A stretch of 64,000 nucleotides of DNA from a virus (IMGVR_UViG_3300013719_000006:12652-76651), one strand, 5' to 3'; numbered from the stretch's first letter, positions 2,076-62,964 are shown. The notes: generated by a model from the letters alone, not told the origin. Made by a program: numbers and translations.

Positions 2076-2972
2076 TTATGCCCCGCGAAAGCCTTCAGGT
2101 ATCGCGTAGTCGGTTGACGAAACAGCCATCACATCGCGCTGCATGTTGCGCTTCAGTGCTTTCCACTCCGAACGCGGTGGACGGCCGGCTTTATCCCATT
2201 TAGTTGCTGACTGGAGATAGCCAGGCAGGTTGCCGGGGATAAACAGCGTTTTGGGGCGCATGTACTGGTATTCCTCAGTGCCTTCCCAGTGGGTGTGCTT
2301 GTAATCCACCACCAAGCACAGCTCTTCCACCGTAAATGCATCTTTCAGCCGGGATTTGATGTGGCCCATCGACGACTGCGCCTCTGTGTGCTTAGCGCCA
2401 GTAACTTTGTTTAGGTGGCGTAAGACTTCCCGAGAGCACTGAAGGATTGACCACTCATCGTCTGGTTGCGTCGCAACCTGACAAGAAGGGTTTGTTGTAA
2501 TCTCTGTAGTATTCTCTGTTGTATTCTCTGTAAGACGAGGGCAATTTGCCCCGATGGATGAGGGCATGTTGCCCTTATCGATAGGTGCAGGTTGCTCTAC
2601 TCGATTGGTGCAATTTGCATCCTTCGATGGGTGCAAATTGCCCTCATCGGTCAATAAAGGGTTTGCGTGGTTAATTGCGTAATAATTAGTCCGATCATGC
2701 TGAGATTTTTTCAGCTGCTCGACGAAAATCAAACCGTGCTTTTTGAGAGAGGTCAGAGCGCGTTTAACCGTGTCAGACGACCAGAATGGGAACTGATTAG
2801 TCCACTCTTCGATAGTGTTATATACCCAGCGTTTTCCGTCATATTCGACGCCAGATGTTGTATCTTCGAGCCAGTAGCAAATCTGCTGCAGCACAATGGC
2901 CTCATTCAGGCCAATACGCTGCGCAAGTACCGGGCTGATAACCAATGGCTTAACCTTCAGCAATAAACTCAT
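2076..2972 (-). CDS. Phage replication initiator with conserved phage C-terminal domain
   Basis: N-terminal LAQRIGLNEAIVLQQICYW; C-terminal YMRPKTLF; internal iterons. Confidence 0.85.
   Translation of the reverse strand: MSLLLKVKPLVISPVLAQRIGLNEAIVLQQICYWLEDTTSGVEYDGKRWVYNTIEEWTNQFPFWSSDTVKRALTSLKKHGLIFVEQLKKSQHDRTNYYAINHANPLLTDEGNLHPSKDANCTNRVEQPAPIDKGNMPSSIGANCPRLTENTTENTTEITTNPSCQVATQPDDEWSILQCSREVLRHLNKVTGAKHTEAQSSMGHIKSRLKDAFTVEELCLVVDYKHTHWEGTEEYQYMRPKTLFIPGNLPGYLQSATKWDKAGRPPRSEWKALKRNMQRDVMAVSSTDYAIPEGFRGA
2537..2651. repeat. Five tandem 23-bp iterons (probable prophage 1 origin)
   Basis: Units start at 2537, 2560, 2583, 2606, 2629 (e.g. GAGGGCAATTTGCCCCGATGGAT); period is not a multiple of 3 although inside a CDS. 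Confidence 0.75.
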
Positions 2973-3151
2973 GACGCCACCTTCCTGAACTTCTGACTAA
3001 ACAAAGCGCGGGGCTGCATGCATGGATGCGGATAGGTGGGGCGCATGTAAATCACGCGATGATTCACCACGTCTACGCCTACCGTTTCCACCACGACGCC
3101 CCGATGGTCCTTATAACGCTCCACCCAGGGTTTAATGATCTCGTTTTCCAT
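2969..3151 (-). CDS. DUF4222-like small phage protein
   Basis: RYKDHRGVVVETVGVD...RVIYMRPTYPHPC. Confidence 0.6.
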   Translation of the reverse strand: MENEIIKPWVERYKDHRGVVVETVGVDVVNHRVIYMRPTYPHPCMQPRALFSQKFRKVAS

Positions 3152-3339
3152 CAGTTCACACCTGACTGCGCCGGGCGGCGGTAAAACGATTTCCACGCTG
3201 CCTCAACTACCAGACGTGTGGTTGACTGGTAGTTGTTAGGGCCACCAGCGGTCGGTATGATTTGCTCATAGACAGGGACGCCAGCGATAACACGGCAACG
3301 GAATTGCCGAACTGCTTTGGTTTGGCTTACAATGGACAT
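3151..3339 (-). CDS. Hypothetical phage protein (62 aa)
   Basis: ATG at 3339 with GGAG upstream; abuts the next gene. Confidence 0.5.
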   Translation of the reverse strand: MSIVSQTKAVRQFRCRVIAGVPVYEQIIPTAGGPNNYQSTTRLVVEAAWKSFYRRPAQSGVN

Positions 3340-5279: not shown

Positions 5280-5347
5280 GGGTACGAAATTGCTGTGTTG
5301 GCGGTTACTCATGAAGGTTTGTTTAACCGCCCTTTTTTCATAACGGT

Positions 5348-5690
5348 GAGAGCATTGCAAGAGCTGGAGCATGGGCAGCTATCAGGCGGGCGTGAGAACC
5401 TTTTTACCTGATAGCTGCAATTAAGCAGTGCTCTCCCCGTTGTGGTGAATGCGGCCAGCGCGCGCGGAAGACTGACAAAGATTGCACACAGTCTAAGAGT
5501 TTCCGCTCTGGTGTTTGTCAGTCTGACCAGAGCACCGGGAGGCACCCGGCACCGCAGCAACCTTTCAAGTGTGTGGAGTAATCGGGCTGTGGGTTATTGC
5601 AGTAACCCACCAGCCAATTTAAACGAATCCCAAAAGTTTTTTATTGCCGTCACTGGCAAGGGATTCATGCAACCAAAAATCGTGTGTGGA
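5348..5690 (+). ncRNA. Multi-domain structured RNA leader in the prophage 1 pL operon
   Basis: Several 8-12 bp inverted repeats in a region without a convincing ORF. Confidence 0.45.
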
Positions 5691-6727: not shown

Positions 6728-7452
6728 TGGATGCAACCGCCAAAAAGAAATACCTCTCCAAAATACAAAAATTGATGCGCCTGGCTGAGAACACCAGCAG
6801 CCCTGCAGAAGCCGCCAGTGCCATGTCAAAAGCGCAGGCATTCATGCGGGAGCATGGCCTGAGTGAATCAGAGGTCGTGTTCTCTGAAATTAGCACCAGC
6901 GAAAGCAAAAGTTCTCCGAGCGATGCTGAGAAGCTGCCTCGCTACATGATCTTCCTGACTCAAACCATCGAAAAGGCCTTCGCCGTGAAAAGCCTTGTAA
7001 GCTGGAGAGTAACCTCTGGCTACCGCTATAAACGCGTCGTTAAATTTTATGGGTTGGATAACCGTGATGTTGCAGCTGCATACATCTTTGACGTTCTGAC
7101 GCGCCAGATTAAGCAGGCGCGAAAAAAATTCATCAATGACCACTGCGAAAGCTGGCTTGCCCCAAAACGTAAGTCGGCATTAGCTGACCAGTTTTGCGAG
7201 GGCTGGGCCTCTGGAGCCTATCACGCAGTGAAAGAGCTGGTTATTGATGAAGAGCAGGAAGCCAAAATGAGCGCCTACGCGGAGAAGTTACGGGATGAGG
7301 GTGTTGGAAACGCTAAGGCCCGCAACAGCAAAAATGCTGATAAACCCTCTCATGCCAAATGTCTGGGCTATCAAGAGGGCATGCACGCAAAAGTTTTCCA
7401 TGGTGTCGATGGCAGCAGCAATTGCCCTGCGTTAATCGGTATGGGGGAATGA
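6724..7452 (+). CDS. DUF2786-domain protein
   Basis: KIQKLMRLAENTSSPAEAASAMSKAQAFMREHGL. Confidence 0.7.
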   Translation: MMDATAKKKYLSKIQKLMRLAENTSSPAEAASAMSKAQAFMREHGLSESEVVFSEISTSESKSSPSDAEKLPRYMIFLTQTIEKAFAVKSLVSWRVTSGYRYKRVVKFYGLDNRDVAAAYIFDVLTRQIKQARKKFINDHCESWLAPKRKSALADQFCEGWASGAYHAVKELVIDEEQEAKMSAYAEKLRDEGVGNAKARNSKNADKPSHAKCLGYQEGMHAKVFHGVDGSSNCPALIGMGE

Positions 7453-8153
7453 CTATGCGTGAACGCCCAATCATCTTTAACGCCGACATGGTTCGTGCAG
7501 TTCTCGACGGCAGAAAGACGCAGACGCGCCGGATCATGCGCGAGCAGCCTGAAGTTATCCCGAAAGAAGATGAGTTTGACCAGCCGGGTTTCTGGATTCC
7601 GTTTAATGCAGGCAAAACGATGGTGCGCAATGAGGACATGTACATTGCCTGCCCGTTCGGTTTGAAGGGTGATCGCCTGTGGGTGCGTGAGACGTGGTCT
7701 GTCGTTAGCCATGCATTTGATGATGATGGTCTGATGATTGATTACGCTCCTGACCGTCCGGCAAAGGCCGTGCATGAGAAGCCGTTCGGCAGGGGCTATT
7801 ACTCTGGTCACGCTATTTACGCTGCTGACGGCGGTTTTACGTGGGGGGACGATGATGGTTGCGTTGATGGCCGGTCATGTTGGAAGCCATCTATCCACAT
7901 GCCGCGCTGGGCTTCCCGCATAACGCTGGAGATTACCGGCGTTCGTGTGGAGCGGTTGAATAGCATGACCGAGAGTGATGCGCTTGCTGAAGGGTGTAAT
8001 GGCGGTCACGACTCTATCCCCGGCTACATGTACAGCGCCACGCCACATGAACACTTCCATCATGTCTGGCAATCCATCTACGGCGCTGACAGCTGGCAGG
8101 CTAATCCGTGGGTGTGGGTTATTGAGTTTACGCGCGTGGAGGGTGACCAGTGA
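7449..8153 (+). CDS. ASCH-like phage protein
   Basis: IIFNADMVRAVLDGRKTQTRR...GDRLWVRET...WKPSIHMPRWASRI. Confidence 0.7.
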   Translation: MTMRERPIIFNADMVRAVLDGRKTQTRRIMREQPEVIPKEDEFDQPGFWIPFNAGKTMVRNEDMYIACPFGLKGDRLWVRETWSVVSHAFDDDGLMIDYAPDRPAKAVHEKPFGRGYYSGHAIYAADGGFTWGDDDGCVDGRSCWKPSIHMPRWASRITLEITGVRVERLNSMTESDALAEGCNGGHDSIPGYMYSATPHEHFHHVWQSIYGADSWQANPWVWVIEFTRVEGDQ

Positions 8154-55533: not shown

Positions 55534-56217
55534 ATGCTCGCCATGGATAAATACGAAAAACGGCGTCAGCGCCTTATACAGATAAGAGACGAAATGTGCG
55601 GCGGAAAAGCCGTCGATCTCGCTCGCAGAATTGAAAGAGAGCCATCATATGTCTCGCGCATGCTCTATGAGGATGGTAAAAAAGGGAAAAAGCGAATTGC
55701 TGACGATATGGTAGAGATCATAGAGAAGGCGTTTTCGCTCCCTCGTGGATGGATGGATGAAATTGCCGATAAAGGGCATGACAACGTTCGCTACGCAGGG
55801 CAACACAAAGAAACGAAGGGATTCCCATTGATTAGCTGGGTAAGCGCCGGGCAATGGCTAGAGGCTCTGGAGCCTTATAAAATAAGTGAAATAGAAGAGT
55901 GGCCTGAGACAACCCAAAGTGCGGGGCCGCATTCGTTCTGGCTCACAGTTAAAGGTGATTCGATGACATCACCAGTAGGTTTCACTGTACCTGAAGGGAT
56001 GATAATCCTGGTAGATCCCAGCAAAGAAGCTAAAAGCGGAAAGCTGGTCGTTGCCAAACTTGTTAATGACAACGAGGCCACATTCAAGATGTATGTGGAA
56101 GACGCCGGTCGCAAATTCCTCAAGCCGCTAAATCCCCAGTACCCTATGACTGAGATTGATGGAAACTGCTCCATCATCGGAACAGTCATAGACGCAAAAT
56201 GGCAAAAACTGCCGTAA
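55534..56217 (+). CDS. cI: CI repressor (HTH plus S24)
   Basis: ISWVSAG, VKGDSM, ATFKMY. Confidence 0.92.
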   Translation: MLAMDKYEKRRQRLIQIRDEMCGGKAVDLARRIEREPSYVSRMLYEDGKKGKKRIADDMVEIIEKAFSLPRGWMDEIADKGHDNVRYAGQHKETKGFPLISWVSAGQWLEALEPYKISEIEEWPETTQSAGPHSFWLTVKGDSMTSPVGFTVPEGMIILVDPSKEAKSGKLVVAKLVNDNEATFKMYVEDAGRKFLKPLNPQYPMTEIDGNCSIIGTVIDAKWQKLP

Positions 56218-56436: not shown

Positions 56437-56548
56437 GCGCTGAAAAAGCGCAAACATTCAAAGCAGCAAGCTTTGGGGTGGTGTGAATTGCAGCGTGAAA
56501 AAGCGCAACTGAGGAGATCGGCATCGCAGCACCTCACCGCCAAAGCTA
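56437..56548 (+). promoter_or_regulatory. nutL boxB and N-leader RNase III-type stem
   Basis: GCGCTGAAAAAGCGC at 56437; AGCTTTGGGGTGG...CCGCCAAAGCT long stem, as in the lambda N leader. Confidence 0.8.
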
Positions 56549-56566
56549 ACTGACAGGAGAATGACC

Positions 56567-56866
56567 ATGAATGCACAAGAGAAACGCCGTGCAGCTCGCG
56601 CAGAGAAACAATCAGCGTGGAAGCAAGCCAACCCCCTGTTGGTTGGCGTGAAGGCTAGACCTGATTGCCGCCCTATCCTCACGTTAAATCGTAAACCAGT
56701 TGACCGCGTGGTTAAGGCTGTCGAGACAGAAACCGAATATCACAAACAGATTCTGGCCGGCGCATCGAAGTATCTCGGTGGAGACATCGAAGGATCAATC
56801 TGCCTTCCTGATGTTGCCATCTATCACGCCGGATATCGCAAGTCAGAAAGCGTTACCGCACGATAG
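56567..56866 (+). CDS. N: Antitermination protein N
   Basis: ARM MNAQEKRRAARAEKQSAWKQANPLLVGV; first pL gene; AACTGACAGGAGAAT leader. Confidence 0.9.
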   Translation: MNAQEKRRAARAEKQSAWKQANPLLVGVKARPDCRPILTLNRKPVDRVVKAVETETEYHKQILAGASKYLGGDIEGSICLPDVAIYHAGYRKSESVTAR

Positions 56867-56918
56867 TTTTGCCAACTTCTGCCGATTAATAAACAGACAA
56901 TTACAGGGAGGGGCAAAA

Positions 56919-57362
56919 TTGAAAAGCACGATGACTTACACAGCAATGCGGGTTAAGCAGTTCGGTTTCACTCCAGCAGTTGAAGTGCAGTGCATTGACA
57001 CCAGGAGCAAACAAAATACTGATTGCTTACTACTGTTCAAGACTCTGGATGACGTGATTTTCCTCGGCGCTGATAACTTTCATCCACTGATTAAAGCGGA
57101 GATGAAAGAGGTCGCGATAGAAGCGCTCGGTGTTGGCAAAGGAAAGCTTCAGCTCGAAGCAAAGCAGCGTGTCAGTGAGCTGGAAAGCAGTCGAATCAGG
57201 CAGGCAGGCATCGCAAGGCAATTCAGGGATGCAGTAGCCGCCTGGTCGCAGGATATCTCAGGCCTTAGCCTTGATGTGCAGAACGGGCTGGATGTGCCAA
57301 CGGTGAAGTCCCGATTAATGGCGCTAGTCAGCAGCATGGAGAGGCTAAAGCCTAACAAATAA
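56919..57362 (+). CDS. Hypothetical cargo protein A (147 aa)
   Basis: TTG start after GGGAGGGG; followed by a terminator. Confidence 0.6.
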   Translation: MKSTMTYTAMRVKQFGFTPAVEVQCIDTRSKQNTDCLLLFKTLDDVIFLGADNFHPLIKAEMKEVAIEALGVGKGKLQLEAKQRVSELESSRIRQAGIARQFRDAVAAWSQDISGLSLDVQNGLDVPTVKSRLMALVSSMERLKPNK

Positions 57363-57368
57363 CAACAA

Positions 57369-57388
57369 CCCGCTTCGGCGGGTTTTTT
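57369..57388 (+). terminator. Intrinsic terminator
   Basis: CCCGCTTCGGCGGG plus T6. Confidence 0.85.
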
Positions 57389-57389
57389 A

Positions 57390-57537
57390 TTGCCTGCACC
57401 AGAGAGTAGAGAAGGCTTGCATCTCCCCTTCTCTGCGTGACCAGAAGACGACTGGCTCAGCCTGCCTGCCTGAGGTTGCAATTTACTCTGCCGGATTCCG
57501 TAACGGTCGCAAAGATGCGACTCATATCATTAAGTGA
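57390..57537 (+). pseudogene. Start-less N C-terminal remnant 1
   Basis: RVEKACISPSLRDQKTTGSACLPEVAIYSAGFRNGRKDATHIIK*. Confidence 0.75.
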
Positions 57538-57543
57538 GGGGTT

Positions 57544-57825
57544 ATGAAGCTCGACTTAAAATACTCACCTGTCAGGCCAGGTGTCGAATACGTCGTTCTT
57601 GACCATGCGAATCACTATGCCGGAACTGTTTGGCGCGTTAATGGCGACGACGCGGAATTGGCTGGATACAGATACAACATAGTTTGGGCGCTGTGCGGGC
57701 CATTCGCATGTACGAATGAACCAGCAAAAGATCATGATGATTTGTGCAAGAAAATAGATGAGATGTCAGAGCGTCATTACGCCGGCTATCGAAAACCAAC
57801 CAAGAGCATTTATCCAGCGAGGTGA
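57544..57825 (+). CDS. Hypothetical cargo protein B
   Basis: GAGGGG RBS; 93 aa. Confidence 0.6.
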   Translation: MKLDLKYSPVRPGVEYVVLDHANHYAGTVWRVNGDDAELAGYRYNIVWALCGPFACTNEPAKDHDDLCKKIDEMSERHYAGYRKPTKSIYPAR

Positions 57826-57827
57826 GC

Positions 57828-58121
57828 ATGAAAAGGACTGGTGAACTGGTAGTGTCTGTGAGCGTAGACACTACCGAGATTGAACTTCAGATAGCAGAGT
57901 TGAAATCGCTATTAGGTTCAGAGCTTGAAGGCGTTTCTGACGATTTCATCAACGCGGCTTATAGCAACCTGCCTGCTGTGCTCAATGATATCGTCTTTAG
58001 TGACACTCCTGCCGCACCCTGCACAAGCCTCAACATTGTCCATCGTGTACGGCTCGGCTCTAAATATGAAAGATTCACTGCCGCAATCAGGGCAGGAAAA
58101 TTGGATTCGAATTTTCTCTGA
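57828..58121 (+). CDS. Hypothetical cargo protein C
   Basis: GAGG RBS; overlapped antisense by a zinc-ribbon ORF. Confidence 0.5.
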   Translation: MKRTGELVVSVSVDTTEIELQIAELKSLLGSELEGVSDDFINAAYSNLPAVLNDIVFSDTPAAPCTSLNIVHRVRLGSKYERFTAAIRAGKLDSNFL

Positions 58122-58124
58122 CAT
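57918..58124 (-). CDS. Small zinc-ribbon protein (ECs_2282-like)
   Basis: FSCPDCGS...CAGCG; AAGGA RBS. Confidence 0.65.
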   Translation of the reverse strand: MSEKIRIQFSCPDCGSESFIFRAEPYTMDNVEACAGCGRSVTKDDIIEHSRQVAISRVDEIVRNAFKL

Positions 58125-58207
58125 AGCAATTCCTTTTAATGACTGTGGAGCAACCAAATTATCAGTTTCCTTTGACTGTGGAAAGCTGAGGAACCACCTC
58201 GCCTGAT

Positions 58208-58357
58208 GTGGATAAAAGCAGGCACCTCAGCCGCACCGAGAAGGCAGTCATCTCCCCTTCTCTGCGTGACAGGCATGAAGGTGGGGCTGTTTGCCTGCCT
58301 GAGGTTGCGCTATACAATGCCGGCAATCGCAAGTCCATTTCCGTAACTGCAAGGTAA
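58208..58357 (+). pseudogene. N C-terminal remnant 2 (possible GTG-started 49-aa mini-N)
   Basis: RTEKAVISPSLRDRHEGGAVCLPEVALYNAGNRKSISVTAR*. Confidence 0.7.
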
Positions 58358-58360
58358 GTC

Positions 58361-58549
58361 ATGAAAAAACTTAAATGCATCCAGTCAAATCAGCATCAGG
58401 CATTTACTGAGGGCAAGATTTACGAAGCCGATGATCGTCTCCGGTTTGTAGTGGGGAATGATGCGGATCAGGAGTCACCCTGGCAGTTAACAGGGATGAA
58501 CGTGAAGATAGACATTGGCATCGTAGCCAAATTTGAAGAGGTCGCTTAG
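58361..58549 (+). CDS. Hypothetical cargo protein E
   Basis: KLKCIQS...FTEGKIYE. Confidence 0.6.
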   Translation: MKKLKCIQSNQHQAFTEGKIYEADDRLRFVVGNDADQESPWQLTGMNVKIDIGIVAKFEEVA

Positions 58550-58560
58550 GCGGCCTTTTT

Positions 58561-58671
58561 TATTGTCTGCGTGACAGGCATGAGAGCACATCGGTATGTC
58601 TGCCGGAGATTGCAATATTTAACGCGGGTTACCGAACCGTCCGGAAGGATGCATCGCACATCATCAAGTAG
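58561..58671 (+). pseudogene. Start-less N C-terminal remnant 3
   Basis: LRDRHESTSVCLPEIAIFNAGYRTVRKDASHIIK*. Confidence 0.75.
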
Positions 58672-58728
58672 CTTCCGGTTTCACCAGCTGGACTTGGATA
58701 CGAATAAATGTGACTCAGGAGGTCGCTA

Positions 58729-59973
58729 ATGGCTTTATCAGCATCAATCATAGTACCCAGCGACATAGCACTGATGGTCCGGGAAGTAGAGCAATCTTAC
58801 TCCTCATATGTCCAAAAATTCCGCATTCCAGATGACCACCTAATTGTTGTGAATTTCTCTGGCGGAAAAGACTCTACGGCAACCCTAGCGATTGCGAATC
58901 ACTTATTTGGTAGCCGGGTTCATAACGTCATGGCAGACACAGACAATGAACATGAGTACACCATCGATTTCGCACAGAAAATACATGAACAGATAGGCTG
59001 TCGACCAACTCAGTTCGTTAAGCGTGTCTATACGGAGAATGACTTCGAAAAGCGTCGTGCTTCCATTAAGAAGAATTGGCCAAAGAGGCAGGCCATAAGA
59101 ATGGGGGCTTACAGAGGGATTGTGATGCCGTCTCTGGCGAACCCGAACACTAAGTTTGCTGATGCATGGAGGAAGTCAGCAAGGAGATGGGGGATAGATT
59201 TTGCGACCCCACTTGATGCTGCACTTTCGGTGCTAAACCCCAGTGGCAACAGCTTTTTAGACGCCGCTTTGCTTCATGGTAAATTCCCGATGCTTCGCGA
59301 TCGCTTTTGCACCGACGAACTGAAAATTAACTCTGTATTCGATCAGGTTATAAACCCAATGCTGAATGAGGGAGAGGTTGTCGTTCAGTGGTCTGGTGTT
59401 AGAGGGGATGAATCTACAAAGAGAGCATCATACGCACGATTTGAGGCCGATCGCCGAGACCCCACCTTTCTCTATAACTTTCTTCCAATCCATAAATGGA
59501 CGGCCGCAGATGTTTTTGCTCTACACAAATACTTCGGCATCAAGCCAAACCCTCTGTATCTGGAAGGTGCGGCACGTGTCGGCTGCATGAACTGCGTGCT
59601 ATGCAACAAAGAAGAGATCGCTCAAACAGCAGCCAGGTACCCACAGCATATAGATAAGCACAGGGACTGGGAGCAAAAGGTCAGGCTTGTTAGTCGCTGG
59701 GTTCACTGGATGAGCGTAGGAACTTTCAGCCAATCATGGATGCGCCAATATTCATTGCCTCTTGGACGTTCAGTGCAGCTCTATGGAAAGAAACCAGCAG
59801 TTCAAAACCTTGACTGGTCGGCATTCTATGGAACACGAGGCGGCATGGGCGCCCCTTCAGTTGATGAAGTTGTGGAATGGGCTAAAACGGGGCGAGGAGG
59901 AAAGGTTTATGACCTCGTTAAAGCAAGCATTGATACTGAAGTTTGCTCATCCAGATACGGTTTGTGTGAATAA
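58729..59973 (+). CDS. PAPS-reductase/DndC-like PP-loop protein
   Basis: FSGGKDS, RFCTDELK, GVRGDES..RA, RVGCMNCVLC, C-terminal CSSRYGLCE; AGGAGG RBS. Confidence 0.85.
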   Translation: MALSASIIVPSDIALMVREVEQSYSSYVQKFRIPDDHLIVVNFSGGKDSTATLAIANHLFGSRVHNVMADTDNEHEYTIDFAQKIHEQIGCRPTQFVKRVYTENDFEKRRASIKKNWPKRQAIRMGAYRGIVMPSLANPNTKFADAWRKSARRWGIDFATPLDAALSVLNPSGNSFLDAALLHGKFPMLRDRFCTDELKINSVFDQVINPMLNEGEVVVQWSGVRGDESTKRASYARFEADRRDPTFLYNFLPIHKWTAADVFALHKYFGIKPNPLYLEGAARVGCMNCVLCNKEEIAQTAARYPQHIDKHRDWEQKVRLVSRWVHWMSVGTFSQSWMRQYSLPLGRSVQLYGKKPAVQNLDWSAFYGTRGGMGAPSVDEVVEWAKTGRGGKVYDLVKASIDTEVCSSRYGLCE

Positions 59974-60009
59974 AGGGTCGCTTAGGCGGCCTTTTTTATT
60001 GGAGGCTCC

Positions 60010-60091: not shown

Positions 60092-60322
60092 ATGAGTAAA
60101 GAGACAGGTGGAGCAGCATTTCCGCTGCCGATGGGAAGTGAAACGGTAGAAGGACAGGAAGGTATGACGCTGCGCGATTACTTCGCAGCCAAGGCAATGA
60201 ATGCCTATATCTCGACGGCGGCAGCGCCTTGCATCGTCGGCGGTCTGGATGGTGCAGAAGATGAACTGGCTAAAGGTGCCTACAAAATGGCCGACGCAAT
60301 GCTGCGTGCTCGGGGCCAGTAA
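60092..60322 (+). CDS. Hypothetical phage protein
   Basis: GMTLRDYFAAKAM...AYKMADAMLRAR. Confidence 0.7.
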   Translation: MSKETGGAAFPLPMGSETVEGQEGMTLRDYFAAKAMNAYISTAAAPCIVGGLDGAEDELAKGAYKMADAMLRARGQ

Positions 60323-60342
60323 CCACTGAACAGGAGAAGAGG

Positions 60343-60549
60343 ATGGAATGGATTAAGTGCAGTGATCGGATGCCAGGCGTTGGGCAGTCGGTTATAGGTT
60401 GGAATGGGTTTGCAATCGTGCAGGTGAAATATCGAAGTAACACTTATGCCAAAACACCAAAAGGTAGATTGCCTCGGTTTGAAAGTAGCACTGGCATTTG
60501 GAACGGATGTACTCACTGGATGCCCCTTCCTGAGCCACCAACTGAGTGA
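60343..60549 (+). CDS. DUF551-family protein
   Basis: WIKCSDRMP...THWMPLPEPP. Confidence 0.75.
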   Translation: MEWIKCSDRMPGVGQSVIGWNGFAIVQVKYRSNTYAKTPKGRLPRFESSTGIWNGCTHWMPLPEPPTE

Positions 60550-60642
60550 CACCGTAAAGCTGTCTGCCTAGACGGCTTTGAGGTGCTACGCACCAACGCT
60601 GAGATTTCAGCAGGATAGATAACCAGAACGTTACATCCTTAT

Positions 60643-61024: not shown

Positions 61025-61332
61025 GACTGAACAGAACAGCCCGGTGTGAGGTGCAGGATATCGCCGACAACCTGCCGGAGAGTGAGCTGGAGTTCATTGC
61101 TGCAGAAGTTGATGCGCGAATGAACCAGCACAAGACTAACCCGTTAATGCCTGCCCTGTGCGCCTTCCTGACGCGGCATTACGACTACCCAGCCATAGAG
61201 ATGTTCGACGAAGACGACGAGCAGCACGAAGCCGCTGAGGCGTTTTTACGTGATGCAATGGTGCGTGTTGCGCGGCGTGAAATGGCGATCGGGATTTACC
61301 GCAACAAACATGGAAATCAGGAGGCGGCGTAA
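61021..61332 (+). CDS. Hypothetical protein
   Basis: 103 aa, coupled to recE. Confidence 0.55.
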
Positions 61333-62150
61333 TGCAGCCTGGCATCTATTACGACATCAGCAACGAGGATTATCACCGCGGCGCTGGCATCAGCAAATCG
61401 CAGCTGGATGACATCGCAATAAGCCCTGCCATTTACCAGTGGCGAAAACATGCCCCTGTCGATGAGGAAAAAACGGCGGCGCTTGATTTAGGTACCGCCC
61501 TGCACTGCCTTCTGCTGGAGCCTGATGAGTTCAGTAAGCGCTTCCAGATTGGGCCGGAAGTTAATCGCAGGACGACCGCGGGAAAAGAGAAAGAAAAAGA
61601 ATTCATCGAGCGCTGTGAGGCTGAAGGAATCACGCCTATCACGCACGATGACAACAGGAAGTTGAAGCTGATGCGGGACAGCGCTTTGGCCCACCCGATT
61701 GCAAGATGGATGCTCGAAGCTCAGGGAAATGCAGAGGCGAGCATCTACTGGAATGACCGCGACGCCGGCGTTTTATCCCGCTGCCGGCCCGACAAGATAA
61801 TTACCGAATTTAACTGGTGCGTGGACGTGAAAAGCACGGCCGACATCATGAAGTTTCAGAAGGACTTTTACTCATACCGATATCACGTTCAGGACGCCTT
61901 CTACTCAGATGGCTATGAATCGCACTTCCATGAGACCCCCACCTTCGCGTTCCTTGCTGTAAGCACGTCAATTGACTGCGGGCGCTACCCGGTGCAGGTG
62001 TTCATCATGGACCAACAGGCAAAGGATGCCGGGCGGGCTGAGTACAAACGCAATATCCACACTTTCGCAGAATGCCTGTCACGGAATGAATGGCCGGGCA
62101 TCGCAACCCTATCACTGCCCTTTTGGGCGAAGGAGTTAAGGAATGAGTAA
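61332..62150 (+). CDS. recE: RecE-like exonuclease VIII (catalytic domain only)
   Basis: [29 protein letters not shown]. Confidence 0.9.
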
Positions 62151-62964
62151 CCAGCCACCTATCGCCAGCGCTGACCTGCAGAAGACGCAGCAGAGCAAGC
62201 AGGTTGCCAATAAAACGCCAGAACAGACGCTTGTTGGATTCATGAATCAGCCTGCGATGAAAAGCCAGCTGGCTGCGGCGCTGCCCCGACACATGACAGC
62301 CGATCGCATGATTCGCATTGTCACTACGGAGATTCGCAAAACGCCACAACTGGCGCAGTGCGACCAGAGCAGCTTCATCGGTGCCGTGGTGCAGTGTTCT
62401 CAATTGGGATTAGAACCGGGTAGCGCGCTGGGGCATGCCTACCTGCTTCCGTTCGGCAATGGCCGCTCGAAATCAGGACAGTCTAACGTCCAGCTGATTA
62501 TCGGCTACCGCGGCATGATTGACCTTGCCCGGCGTTCAGGGCAAATCGTCAGCCTGTCTGCCCGGGTGGTTCGTGCAGATGACGAATTCAGTTTCGAGTA
62601 CGGACTGGACGAAAATCTGGTTCACCGCCCGGGTGAAAACGAAGACGCGCCAATCACCCATGTTTACGCTGTAGCGCGCCTGAAGGATGGCGGCACGCAA
62701 TTTGAAGTTATGACCGTTAAGCAGGTGGAAAAGGTCAAGGCGCAGAGCAAGGCATCCTCTAACGGGCCATGGGTCACACACTGGGAAGAGATGGCGAAGA
62801 AGACAGTCATCCGCCGGCTGTTCAAGTACCTGCCGGTCAGTATCGAGATGCAGAAAGCCGTGGTGCTGGATGAGAAGGCCGAAAGCGATGTTGACCAAGA
62901 TAACGCATCAGTTTTGAGCGCTGAGTACAGCGTATTGGAGAGCGGAGATGAAGCAACCAACTGA
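62143..62964 (+). CDS. recT: RecT annealase
   Basis: [18 protein letters not shown]; [17 protein letters not shown]; [15 protein letters not shown]. Confidence 0.95.

Follow-up and report, generated by a model that had tools for sequence, protein, structure and literature searches.

Displaced 3′ ends of the antitermination gene N between accessory genes of a lambda-like prophage: probable homology linkers for unequal recombination

The provirus record IMGVR_UViG_3300013719_000006:12652-76651 of IMG/VR, the whole 64,000-nucleotide (nt) stretch of which is designated here as the window, raises the question of why an early operon should contain, downstream of a single complete antitermination gene N, further copies of the 3′ end of that gene, each placed in front of a different accessory gene (cargo). 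The copies are located in the promoter-proximal stretch of the pL (early-left) operon of a lambda-like prophage, the immunity and early-left region of which is found at about 55.5-63 kb of the window. The comparison with related IMG/VR phage contigs—bearing labels of the L0xx type in what follows—establishes from which alleles the remnants come, where the breakpoints lie, how the relatives vary and that N has a mosaic structure, and makes it probable that unequal homologous recombination in N-derived sequence stacks and swaps early genes, the remnants being untranslated relics that at the same time provide portable homology.

Origin of the displaced N 3′ ends

The live N gene encodes a protein with a lambda-like N-terminal arginine-rich motif (ARM) and a C-terminal tail, ending in ..VTAR, that is related to the product of P22 gene 24, gp24 (51% identity over 42 amino acids, aa, by tblastn); both its Pfam matches, N36 and N_peptide, are above cut-off. 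Downstream of it there are three long 3′ remnants, A, B and C (Table 1), the N-homologous portion of each beginning at the first coordinate given there. The N of the window, searched against its own genome, gave three extra matches with E-values of 2.5e-6 to 1.5e-3, and a hidden Markov model (HMM) of the N tail recovered each copy with E-values of 1e-20 to 1e-26, any other match in the 64-kb window having an E-value of 0.7 or more. Remnants A and B also match the C-terminal part of the N-like PHROG family phrog_271. An earlier note, prepared from the sequence of the window, had described an N with a lambda-like ARM and a gp24-like C-terminus, its C-terminal motif recurring three times in open frames, each time just upstream of different cargo; all this agrees with the Pfam and tblastn matches, with the self-search and HMM, and with the open reading frame (ORF) and family matches of the cargo. 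It also holds that A and C come right after intrinsic terminators and have no in-frame start, none being available that would give at least 30 aa.

Each of the remnants can be traced to a foreign allele. Remnant A is 98.3% identical to the live N 3′ end of L097, in which c2a and c2b come next, the tails agreeing in 44 of 45 residues. Remnant B is 95.8-96.3% identical to the live N 3′ ends of L053—where c3 comes next—and L059, with an 89-nt exact match to the latter, and remnant C shares 54 nt exactly with the N of L057; exact matches of 54-89 nt tie each remnant to live N genes in other contigs. In addition, a fourth and short remnant, located at the end of c2a, supplies both the stop codon of c2a and the Shine-Dalgarno sequence (SD) of c2b. 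It corresponds to the end of the live N gene in L064, within a segment 99.6% identical to the window, and its ..SIYPAR tail is carried by the live N genes of L094 and L108 as well, with a 38-nt exact match to that of L094. A displaced N 3′ end therefore stands before four of the five cargo genes (c2a, c2b, c3 and c4), the remaining one, c1, coming after the live N.

The copies differ from each other mostly at synonymous sites. Over the 13 codons common to them, the proportion of synonymous differences (pS) between copies is 0.48-0.95 versus 0.14-0.17 for the nonsynonymous one (pN), synonymous sites being near saturation, and therefore the copies have diverged as coding sequence. The earlier suggestion of mainly synonymous differences, and of separate N alleles acquired from other phages, has thus been confirmed by the pS/pN comparison and by the 96-99.6% identity of each copy to a live N 3′ end followed by the same cargo (L097, L064 and L053). 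A recent duplication within the genome was considered and rejected: the mean column identity is 63%, synonymous sites are nearly saturated and every copy resembles a foreign live N more closely than it does the neighbouring copies.

In all remnants the frame is open as far as the natural stop codon. Only the C-terminal 36-48 residues of A, B and C match N, without any ARM, and hence none of them qualifies as an antiterminator with an N-terminal ARM and a match to the full-length N profile. Relaxed constraint was sought and not found, the remnants being no more deviant at invariant motif positions than the live alleles (2 of 21 motifs deviant versus 7 of 55), and for this reason it is not possible to date the remnants as old pseudogenes.

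Variation among relatives and the positions of breakpoints

The search of IMG/VR with the N protein yielded 46 related loci, and a 20-mer from the conserved part of the remnants—the core—has an exact match in 61 stretches. Most of the latter are full-length N genes of four N-terminal families, ending in ..TAR, ..HIIK, ..SIYPAR or the lambda-type tail, in all combinations with the N-terminal families. Because the four families and the several ends share one mid-gene core (peptide SPSLRDRHE), the N of this pool is itself mosaic. Among species-representative genomes, the exact core 20-mer was found only in three Pantoea, and the gene pool is therefore assigned to Pantoea lambdoid phages. The 74 Pantoea species genomes include 14 with a match, two or three of them remnant-like, and no arrays; when the region was compared with cultured phages and complete E. 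coli genomes for near-identical DNA, only trivial short matches emerged. Among cultured-phage records with a P22-type N tail, a second copy is present in only 3 of 162, one of these being Flyfo siphovirus Tbat2_3, whose remnant bears the annotation ‘hypothetical protein’.

Copy number and cargo vary between the relatives, as the earlier note had expected, and no block of fixed composition is common to them. Within about 95 distinct contigs possessing such an N tail, long remnants are absent from most, present once in about 19 and three times only in the window. The cargo behind remnants belongs to many families, and every cargo gene of the window except c4 occurs somewhere directly behind a live N; the core and tail adjoin more than 10 different gene families upstream and downstream. 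The order N-c1-terminator-remnant recurs in L005-L008 and L014, and the junction of a T1-type terminator with a remnant in L005-L008 and L020. Homologues of c2a directly follow a remnant or a live N in L013, L037, L065 and L097, c2b is situated directly behind a live N in L064 and L009, and c3 is found directly behind a live N in L053 and behind remnant B in L064. The left junction of remnant B recurs in L064, L096 and L097, and the terminator-remnant C junction is present in L053, too.

Four segments of related contigs tile the window (Table 1, last rows), overlapping one another in N-derived sequence. The L005-like and L097-like segments share only 57394-57441, which is N-derived and includes the core, and this stretch is probably the crossover interval between them. 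The homology with L005, L008 and L020 ends exactly at 57441, and the L007 remnant is chimeric, being A-like up to the core and C-like after it. All the breakpoints seen against related genomes—57441, 57394, 57790, 58222, 58278, 58568 and 58672—taken together support the earlier idea of an anchor for recombination inside N-derived sequence, with the correction that the main anchor is the mid-gene core plus tail and not the tail alone.

As to the left ends of the remnants, about ten distinct junctions with unrelated upstream sequences were distinguished, many of them in the 15 nt or so upstream of the core. The clustering should be taken as indicative, because blastn understated the extents of some remnants (that of L013 continues upstream in a diverged form). 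A DNA profile of the N 3′ end revealed, moreover, a 38-nt mini-tail, i.e. the last 12 codons and the stop, in at least 20 other loci, usually directly after the T-run of a terminator and 2-8 nt before the next start codon. It is nearly invariant in L038, L041, L042, L047, L058-L060, L063, L064, L074, L087 and L092; the terminator hairpins differ, the junction after the T-run is always identical, and the mini-tail carries the SD of the next gene. Overall, N-derived sequence following a T-run starts at three depths, about 39 nt before the core (A), at the core (C) and at the last 12 codons (mini-tail), which looks like a deletion series in which the relic has been trimmed from its 5′ side and the ribosome-binding site of the next gene kept.

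Some further observations on N were made in the relatives. In L040 (7974-8417), L110 (1654-2097) and L065 (reverse strand; in the alignment orientation, N at 5302-5628 and the remnant up to 5751), the N protein ends in the lambda-type ..GKSIPLI, and beyond a single TGA stop a P22-type remnant continues the frame of N, the junctions being of two different kinds; if that TGA were read through, a second RNA-polymerase-binding tail would be added. In the centre of N (56697-56773, the peptide around KAVETETEYHKQIL), the DNA is 82-87% identical in loci whose N proteins are only 40-50% identical, and this part may represent a second conserved recombination patch inside N.

Proposed recombination route and the alternatives

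The arrangement could have arisen as follows. In this pool, variable accessory genes occupy the slot just downstream of N, and N is a mosaic of three parts—a nut-specific N-terminal module, a mid-gene core highly conserved in DNA and a C-terminal tail of several types—the last codons of which often bear the ribosome-binding site of the following gene. Given two phages with different cargo, the N-derived sequence of one would pair with the displaced N remnant of the other. The product of the unequal crossover would hold both cargo sets, with the former N 3′ end remaining before the downstream set, and the reciprocal event would delete cargo and give N a new tail. The window would then represent at least three such events with four kinds of parents, namely L005-like (N-c1-terminator-remnant), L097-like (N-c2a-c2b-remnant), L064/L053-like (N-c2b-remnant-c3-terminator-remnant) and a PAPS-reductase donor, the first displaced copy of each junction type coming from a non-homologous event or a deletion. 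We infer that the crossovers were homologous and catalysed by RecET-type functions of the phage, that expansion and not contraction took place, and that the cargo is expressed by terminator read-through; to judge from the lambda-type N, N-dependent antitermination would pass the three internal terminators and the stacked genes would remain in the early transcript. RecT-type recombinases are known to recombine short, diverged homology efficiently (PMC3945230).

Such exchange appears more plausible with relatives than within the element. The three exact tracts quoted earlier as shared by the copies were all recovered (22 and 17 nt for A/B, 18 nt for B/C), the 17-nt one in the alignment of the copies. 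Exact identity is at most 22 nt between remnants, and it is at most 10 nt between the N of the window and its own remnants. Since these tracts are shorter than the minimal pairing segment of Red-beta, 23-27 nt (PMC3945230), an accordion in cis or an exchange of the N C-terminus inside this prophage is unlikely, and recombination with relatives sharing exact matches of 54-89 nt is the likelier route. The swap between two N C-termini proposed in the earlier note is consequently borne out at the level of the pool, both ..TAR and ..HIIK occurring on live N genes with the same N-terminal modules, but hardly as an event in cis.

Several points weigh against the route outlined above. The exact tracts within the window are as short as just mentioned. 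The core was partly sampled by an exact-match search, its apparent conservation being inflated by ascertainment, and simple crossing-over does not explain the clustering of left junctions just upstream of it. Illegitimate recombination must also contribute, because the first displaced remnant of each junction type needs a non-homologous event. For the joining of remnant C to the PAPS-reductase gene the data offer no counterpart, and homology does not account for the capture of that gene. Finally, the open frames in every remnant could alternatively mean selection on a product.

It is rather unlikely that the core, the tail and the preceding terminator together form a selected, homology-based system of cassette capture, i.e. 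a recombinase-independent analogue of an integron, with portable arms by which any phage of the pool could accumulate, drop or exchange early-expressed cargo under N antitermination. If so, the clustering of left junctions and the constant T-run junction would reflect selection for intact arms, and in a sub-variant of this explanation c2a and the L035/L065 family may use their in-frame N tail to contact RNA polymerase; a by-product of mosaic recombination appears likelier than a dedicated, selected system of this kind.

Quite unlikely, too, is the possibility that the remnants are inert scars of illegitimate insertions of N plus cargo, having no further role in recombination. The ten or so left junctions with unrelated upstream sequence, the joining of the PAPS-reductase gene without detectable homology and the short exact tracts inside the window would fit such an origin, but the chimeric remnants and the tiling overlaps repeatedly place breakpoints inside N-derived sequence, L005-L008, L020 and the window combine a common left half with various right halves and cargo, and the 38-nt mini-tail is conserved, with its constant T-run junction, beside different genes in at least 20 loci.

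That one or more remnants are translated, either as ARM-less mini-N peptides or as read-through extensions of N acting on RNA polymerase, is highly improbable. Every frame is open to its natural stop with invariant residues kept as often as in live N, the in-frame GTG of copy B (58208) is conserved in L064, L096 and L097, and the remnants of L040, L110 and L065 follow the stop of a lambda-type N in frame. On the other hand, A and C, which have their left ends within or immediately behind a terminator, lack a start codon, the left ends differ from remnant to remnant, the SD of B's GTG is poorly spaced (about 16 nt upstream), the tails of 36-38 nt are too short for a functional domain and, with 96-99.6% identity to live alleles, the open frames may just be young; the start codon, properly spaced SD and conserved N-terminus expected together in a translated mini-N were not found in the remnants.

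A selected RNA or DNA element—a processing, protein-binding or site-specific recombination site—is barely credible and was rejected as the principal explanation, for although the core is nearly invariant in DNA while the codons after it vary synonymously, and many left junctions cluster just 5′ of the core with a constant junction between the T-run and N-derived sequence, there is no Rfam match and no conserved fold (consensus energy -2.9 kcal/mol, negligible covariation), no site-specific recombinase was recognized among the pL-operon genes scanned (55.5-63.6 kb), promoter-like sites are not above chance and the core varies in some lineages, including amino-acid changes. A promoter inside the core was dropped as well, the would-be -10 not being conserved among the remnants and the scan remaining at chance level.

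The locus and its likeness to known systems

The coordinates of the features are summarized in Table 1.

Table 1. Features of the early-left region in the window and the segments of related contigs that tile it (SD, Shine-Dalgarno sequence)
Feature	Position	Strand	Evidence or remark
S24-peptidase repressor	55534-56217		Pfam Peptidase_S24
nutL boxB-type hairpin, 5-bp stem, GAAAA loop, 5′ of N	56438-56452	+	read from sequence
Antiterminator N	56567-56866	+	Pfam N_peptide 2.1e-14, N36 3.4e-12; phrog_271
Cargo c1, function unknown, own SD	56919-57362	+	phrog_13686 1.2e-72
Intrinsic terminator T1, ending in T-run and ATTG junction	57367-57392	+	terminator scan
Remnant A, 3′-terminal 144 nt of a foreign ..HIIK-type N allele, without start codon	57394-57537	+	HMM E 7.9e-25
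Cargo c2a, 93 aa, function unknown	57544-57825	+	ORF
Short remnant, 36 nt, ..SIYPAR type; last 12 codons of c2a, in-frame N 3′ tail	57790-57825	+	
Cargo c2b, 97 aa, function unknown	57828-58121	+	phrog_29546
Short boundary sequence, not N-derived	58189-58224	+	
Remnant B, 3′-terminal 141 nt of a foreign ..VTAR-type N allele	58217-58357	+	
Cargo c3, 62 aa, function unknown	58361-58549	+	ORF
Terminator T2, 26-nt exact direct repeat of T3	58540-58565	+	repeat search, terminator scan
Remnant C, 3′-terminal 109 nt of a foreign ..HIIK-type N allele, beginning at core, without start codon	58563-58671	+	HMM E 4.2e-20
Cargo c4, PAPS-reductase-family enzyme, 414 aa, own SD	58729-59973	+	Pfam PAPS_reduct 1.1e-21; phrog_424
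Terminator T3, repeat of T2	59976-60001	+	
RecE-like PDDEXK exonuclease	61332-62150	+	Pfam DUF3799 1.3e-27
RecT annealase	62143-62964	+	Pfam RecT 1.1e-56
Segment like L005: N-c1-terminator-left part of remnant	56540-57441		97.3% identity
Segment like L097: live N 3′ end-c2a-c2b-remnant B	57394-58278		98.3% identity
Segment like L064: live N tail-c2b-remnant B-c3-terminator	57790-58568		99.6% identity
Segment like L053: live N 3′ end-c3-terminator-remnant C	58222-58672		95.8% identity

The boxB-type hairpin was also detected on the minus strand by the terminator scan, and a degenerate second boxB hairpin is present at 56493-56508, about 55 nt 3′ of the first one and still 5′ of N. For N itself, the ATG at 56567 has a better SD spacing than that at 56561. 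The RecE-like exonuclease and RecT, expected about 2 kb away and indeed found about 2 kb downstream, are candidate recombination functions of the locus.

The remnants begin after a terminator or a stop codon, and the distance from the end of each to the next start codon is 3-57 nt. The SDs of c2a, c2b and c3 are inside N-derived last codons, that of c2a within the last codons and stop of remnant A and that of c3 within the last codons of remnant B. Cargo ORFs of two families without relation to each other, one that of c2a (57544-57825) and the other found in L035 (about 7040-7455) and L065, end in frame in the N tail; these proteins use the N stop codon and so finish with GYRK...AR residues. 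In L054 (reverse strand; 2721-3296 in the alignment orientation), the cargo between the live N and the remnant is a pentapeptide-repeat protein of 191 aa.

In the sets searched, c4 is joined to an N remnant only in this window. A parent with N directly followed by a PAPS-reductase gene, which would complete the tiling, was sought without success: none of the 26 relatives of c4 (aa identity up to 77%) has an N remnant within 3 kb, the homology ending at the coding region and the flanks being unrelated. The hairpin and T-run of T2 span 58535-58565 in the terminator scan, and a small membrane-peptide gene common to many relatives comes after T3. The exact T2/T3 repeat, with a spacing of 1436 nt, flanks remnant C and the PAPS-reductase gene, and recombination between its copies would excise exactly this cassette.

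The boundary sequence preceding remnant B matches L013 and L020 at 100% and L034 at 91%, in loci that have no remnant there. Together with 60313-60337 and 60543-60600, it is one of three short non-N sequences shared at 98-100% with relatives whose neighbouring genes differ, and these are additional boundary sequences of the operon.

The closest parallel is offered by the boundary, or linker, sequences of lambdoid phages (Susskind and Botstein 1978; Clark et al. 2001, on HK620), as summarised in PMC3029335. According to that summary, these are likewise short conserved sequences between unrelated genes of the early-left operon, located at gene boundaries where homology starts and stops, and they were proposed to direct the homologous exchange of modules. 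The N-derived sequences share with them the unrelated flanking genes, the position at gene boundaries and the homology breakpoints within. As far as the summary goes, the difference is that the linker here derives from an essential regulator gene, being a piece of 36-144 nt from the N 3′ end, and occurs up to four times per operon; being reiterated, it would allow unequal crossovers to change the number of cargo genes, not just to replace one by another. No account of reiterated N 3′ remnants turned up in the literature searches, Clark et al. (2001) having been compared by secondary citation.

Relaxed homologous recombination by Rad52-like recombinases (Red-beta, RecT, Erf) has been reported to drive the mosaicism of temperate phages, with pieces of about 100 bp within genes often exchanged (De Paepe et al. 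2014; PMC3945230). This phage, too, encodes RecT and an exonuclease, and its exchanges would take place on short, partly diverged homology; in that study, however, exchange was measured with defective E. coli prophages and no repeated gene-tail architecture is described, whereas the present case is read from sequence.

With respect to lambda N and P22 gp24, the live gene is a member of the family. The remnants are homologous to its C-terminal third, but they lack the RNA-binding ARM and the central region and, in A and C, the start codon as well. Integron arrays are similar in having tandem promoterless single-gene cassettes with a repeated element between them and one upstream promoter. In contrast to integrons, the repeated element is here a fragment of a coding gene, variable in length, and the breakpoints look like homologous crossovers; an attC-type inverted repeat and an adjacent integron integrase were not found, the latter within the 55.5-63.6 kb covered by the recombinase scan, and the cassette ends are intrinsic terminators and N fragments. 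The morons of lambdoid phages, reportedly treated by Juhala and colleagues in 2000, resemble the cargo as single accessory genes placed between conserved ones and often followed by a terminator, as is the case for c1, c3 and c4. With regard to the promoter that a moron would have of its own, 3 promoter-like sites were seen versus 4.9 expected, none of the cassettes having one detectable above chance. Morons differ in that three of the five cargo genes here depend on an SD inside an N-derived tail and the cassettes carry a piece of a former upstream gene.

It is an old matter of debate whether the joints of phage mosaics come from homologous exchange at short linkers or from random illegitimate joining followed by selection. 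The locus described here provides a clear natural case, since parent-like genomes, products and crossover intervals are visible at 96-99.6% identity. It also presents N as assembled from exchangeable modules around a conserved core, and it cautions that the small ‘hypothetical proteins’ which deposited phage records list behind N can be relics of genes (an example being OL617042). What is new in comparison with the systems above is that the linker is a reiterated fragment of an essential gene and that parent-like and product-like arrangements can all be observed; such a linker lets the number of genes grow and shrink, and makes the debate testable in a tractable pool of hosts and phages.

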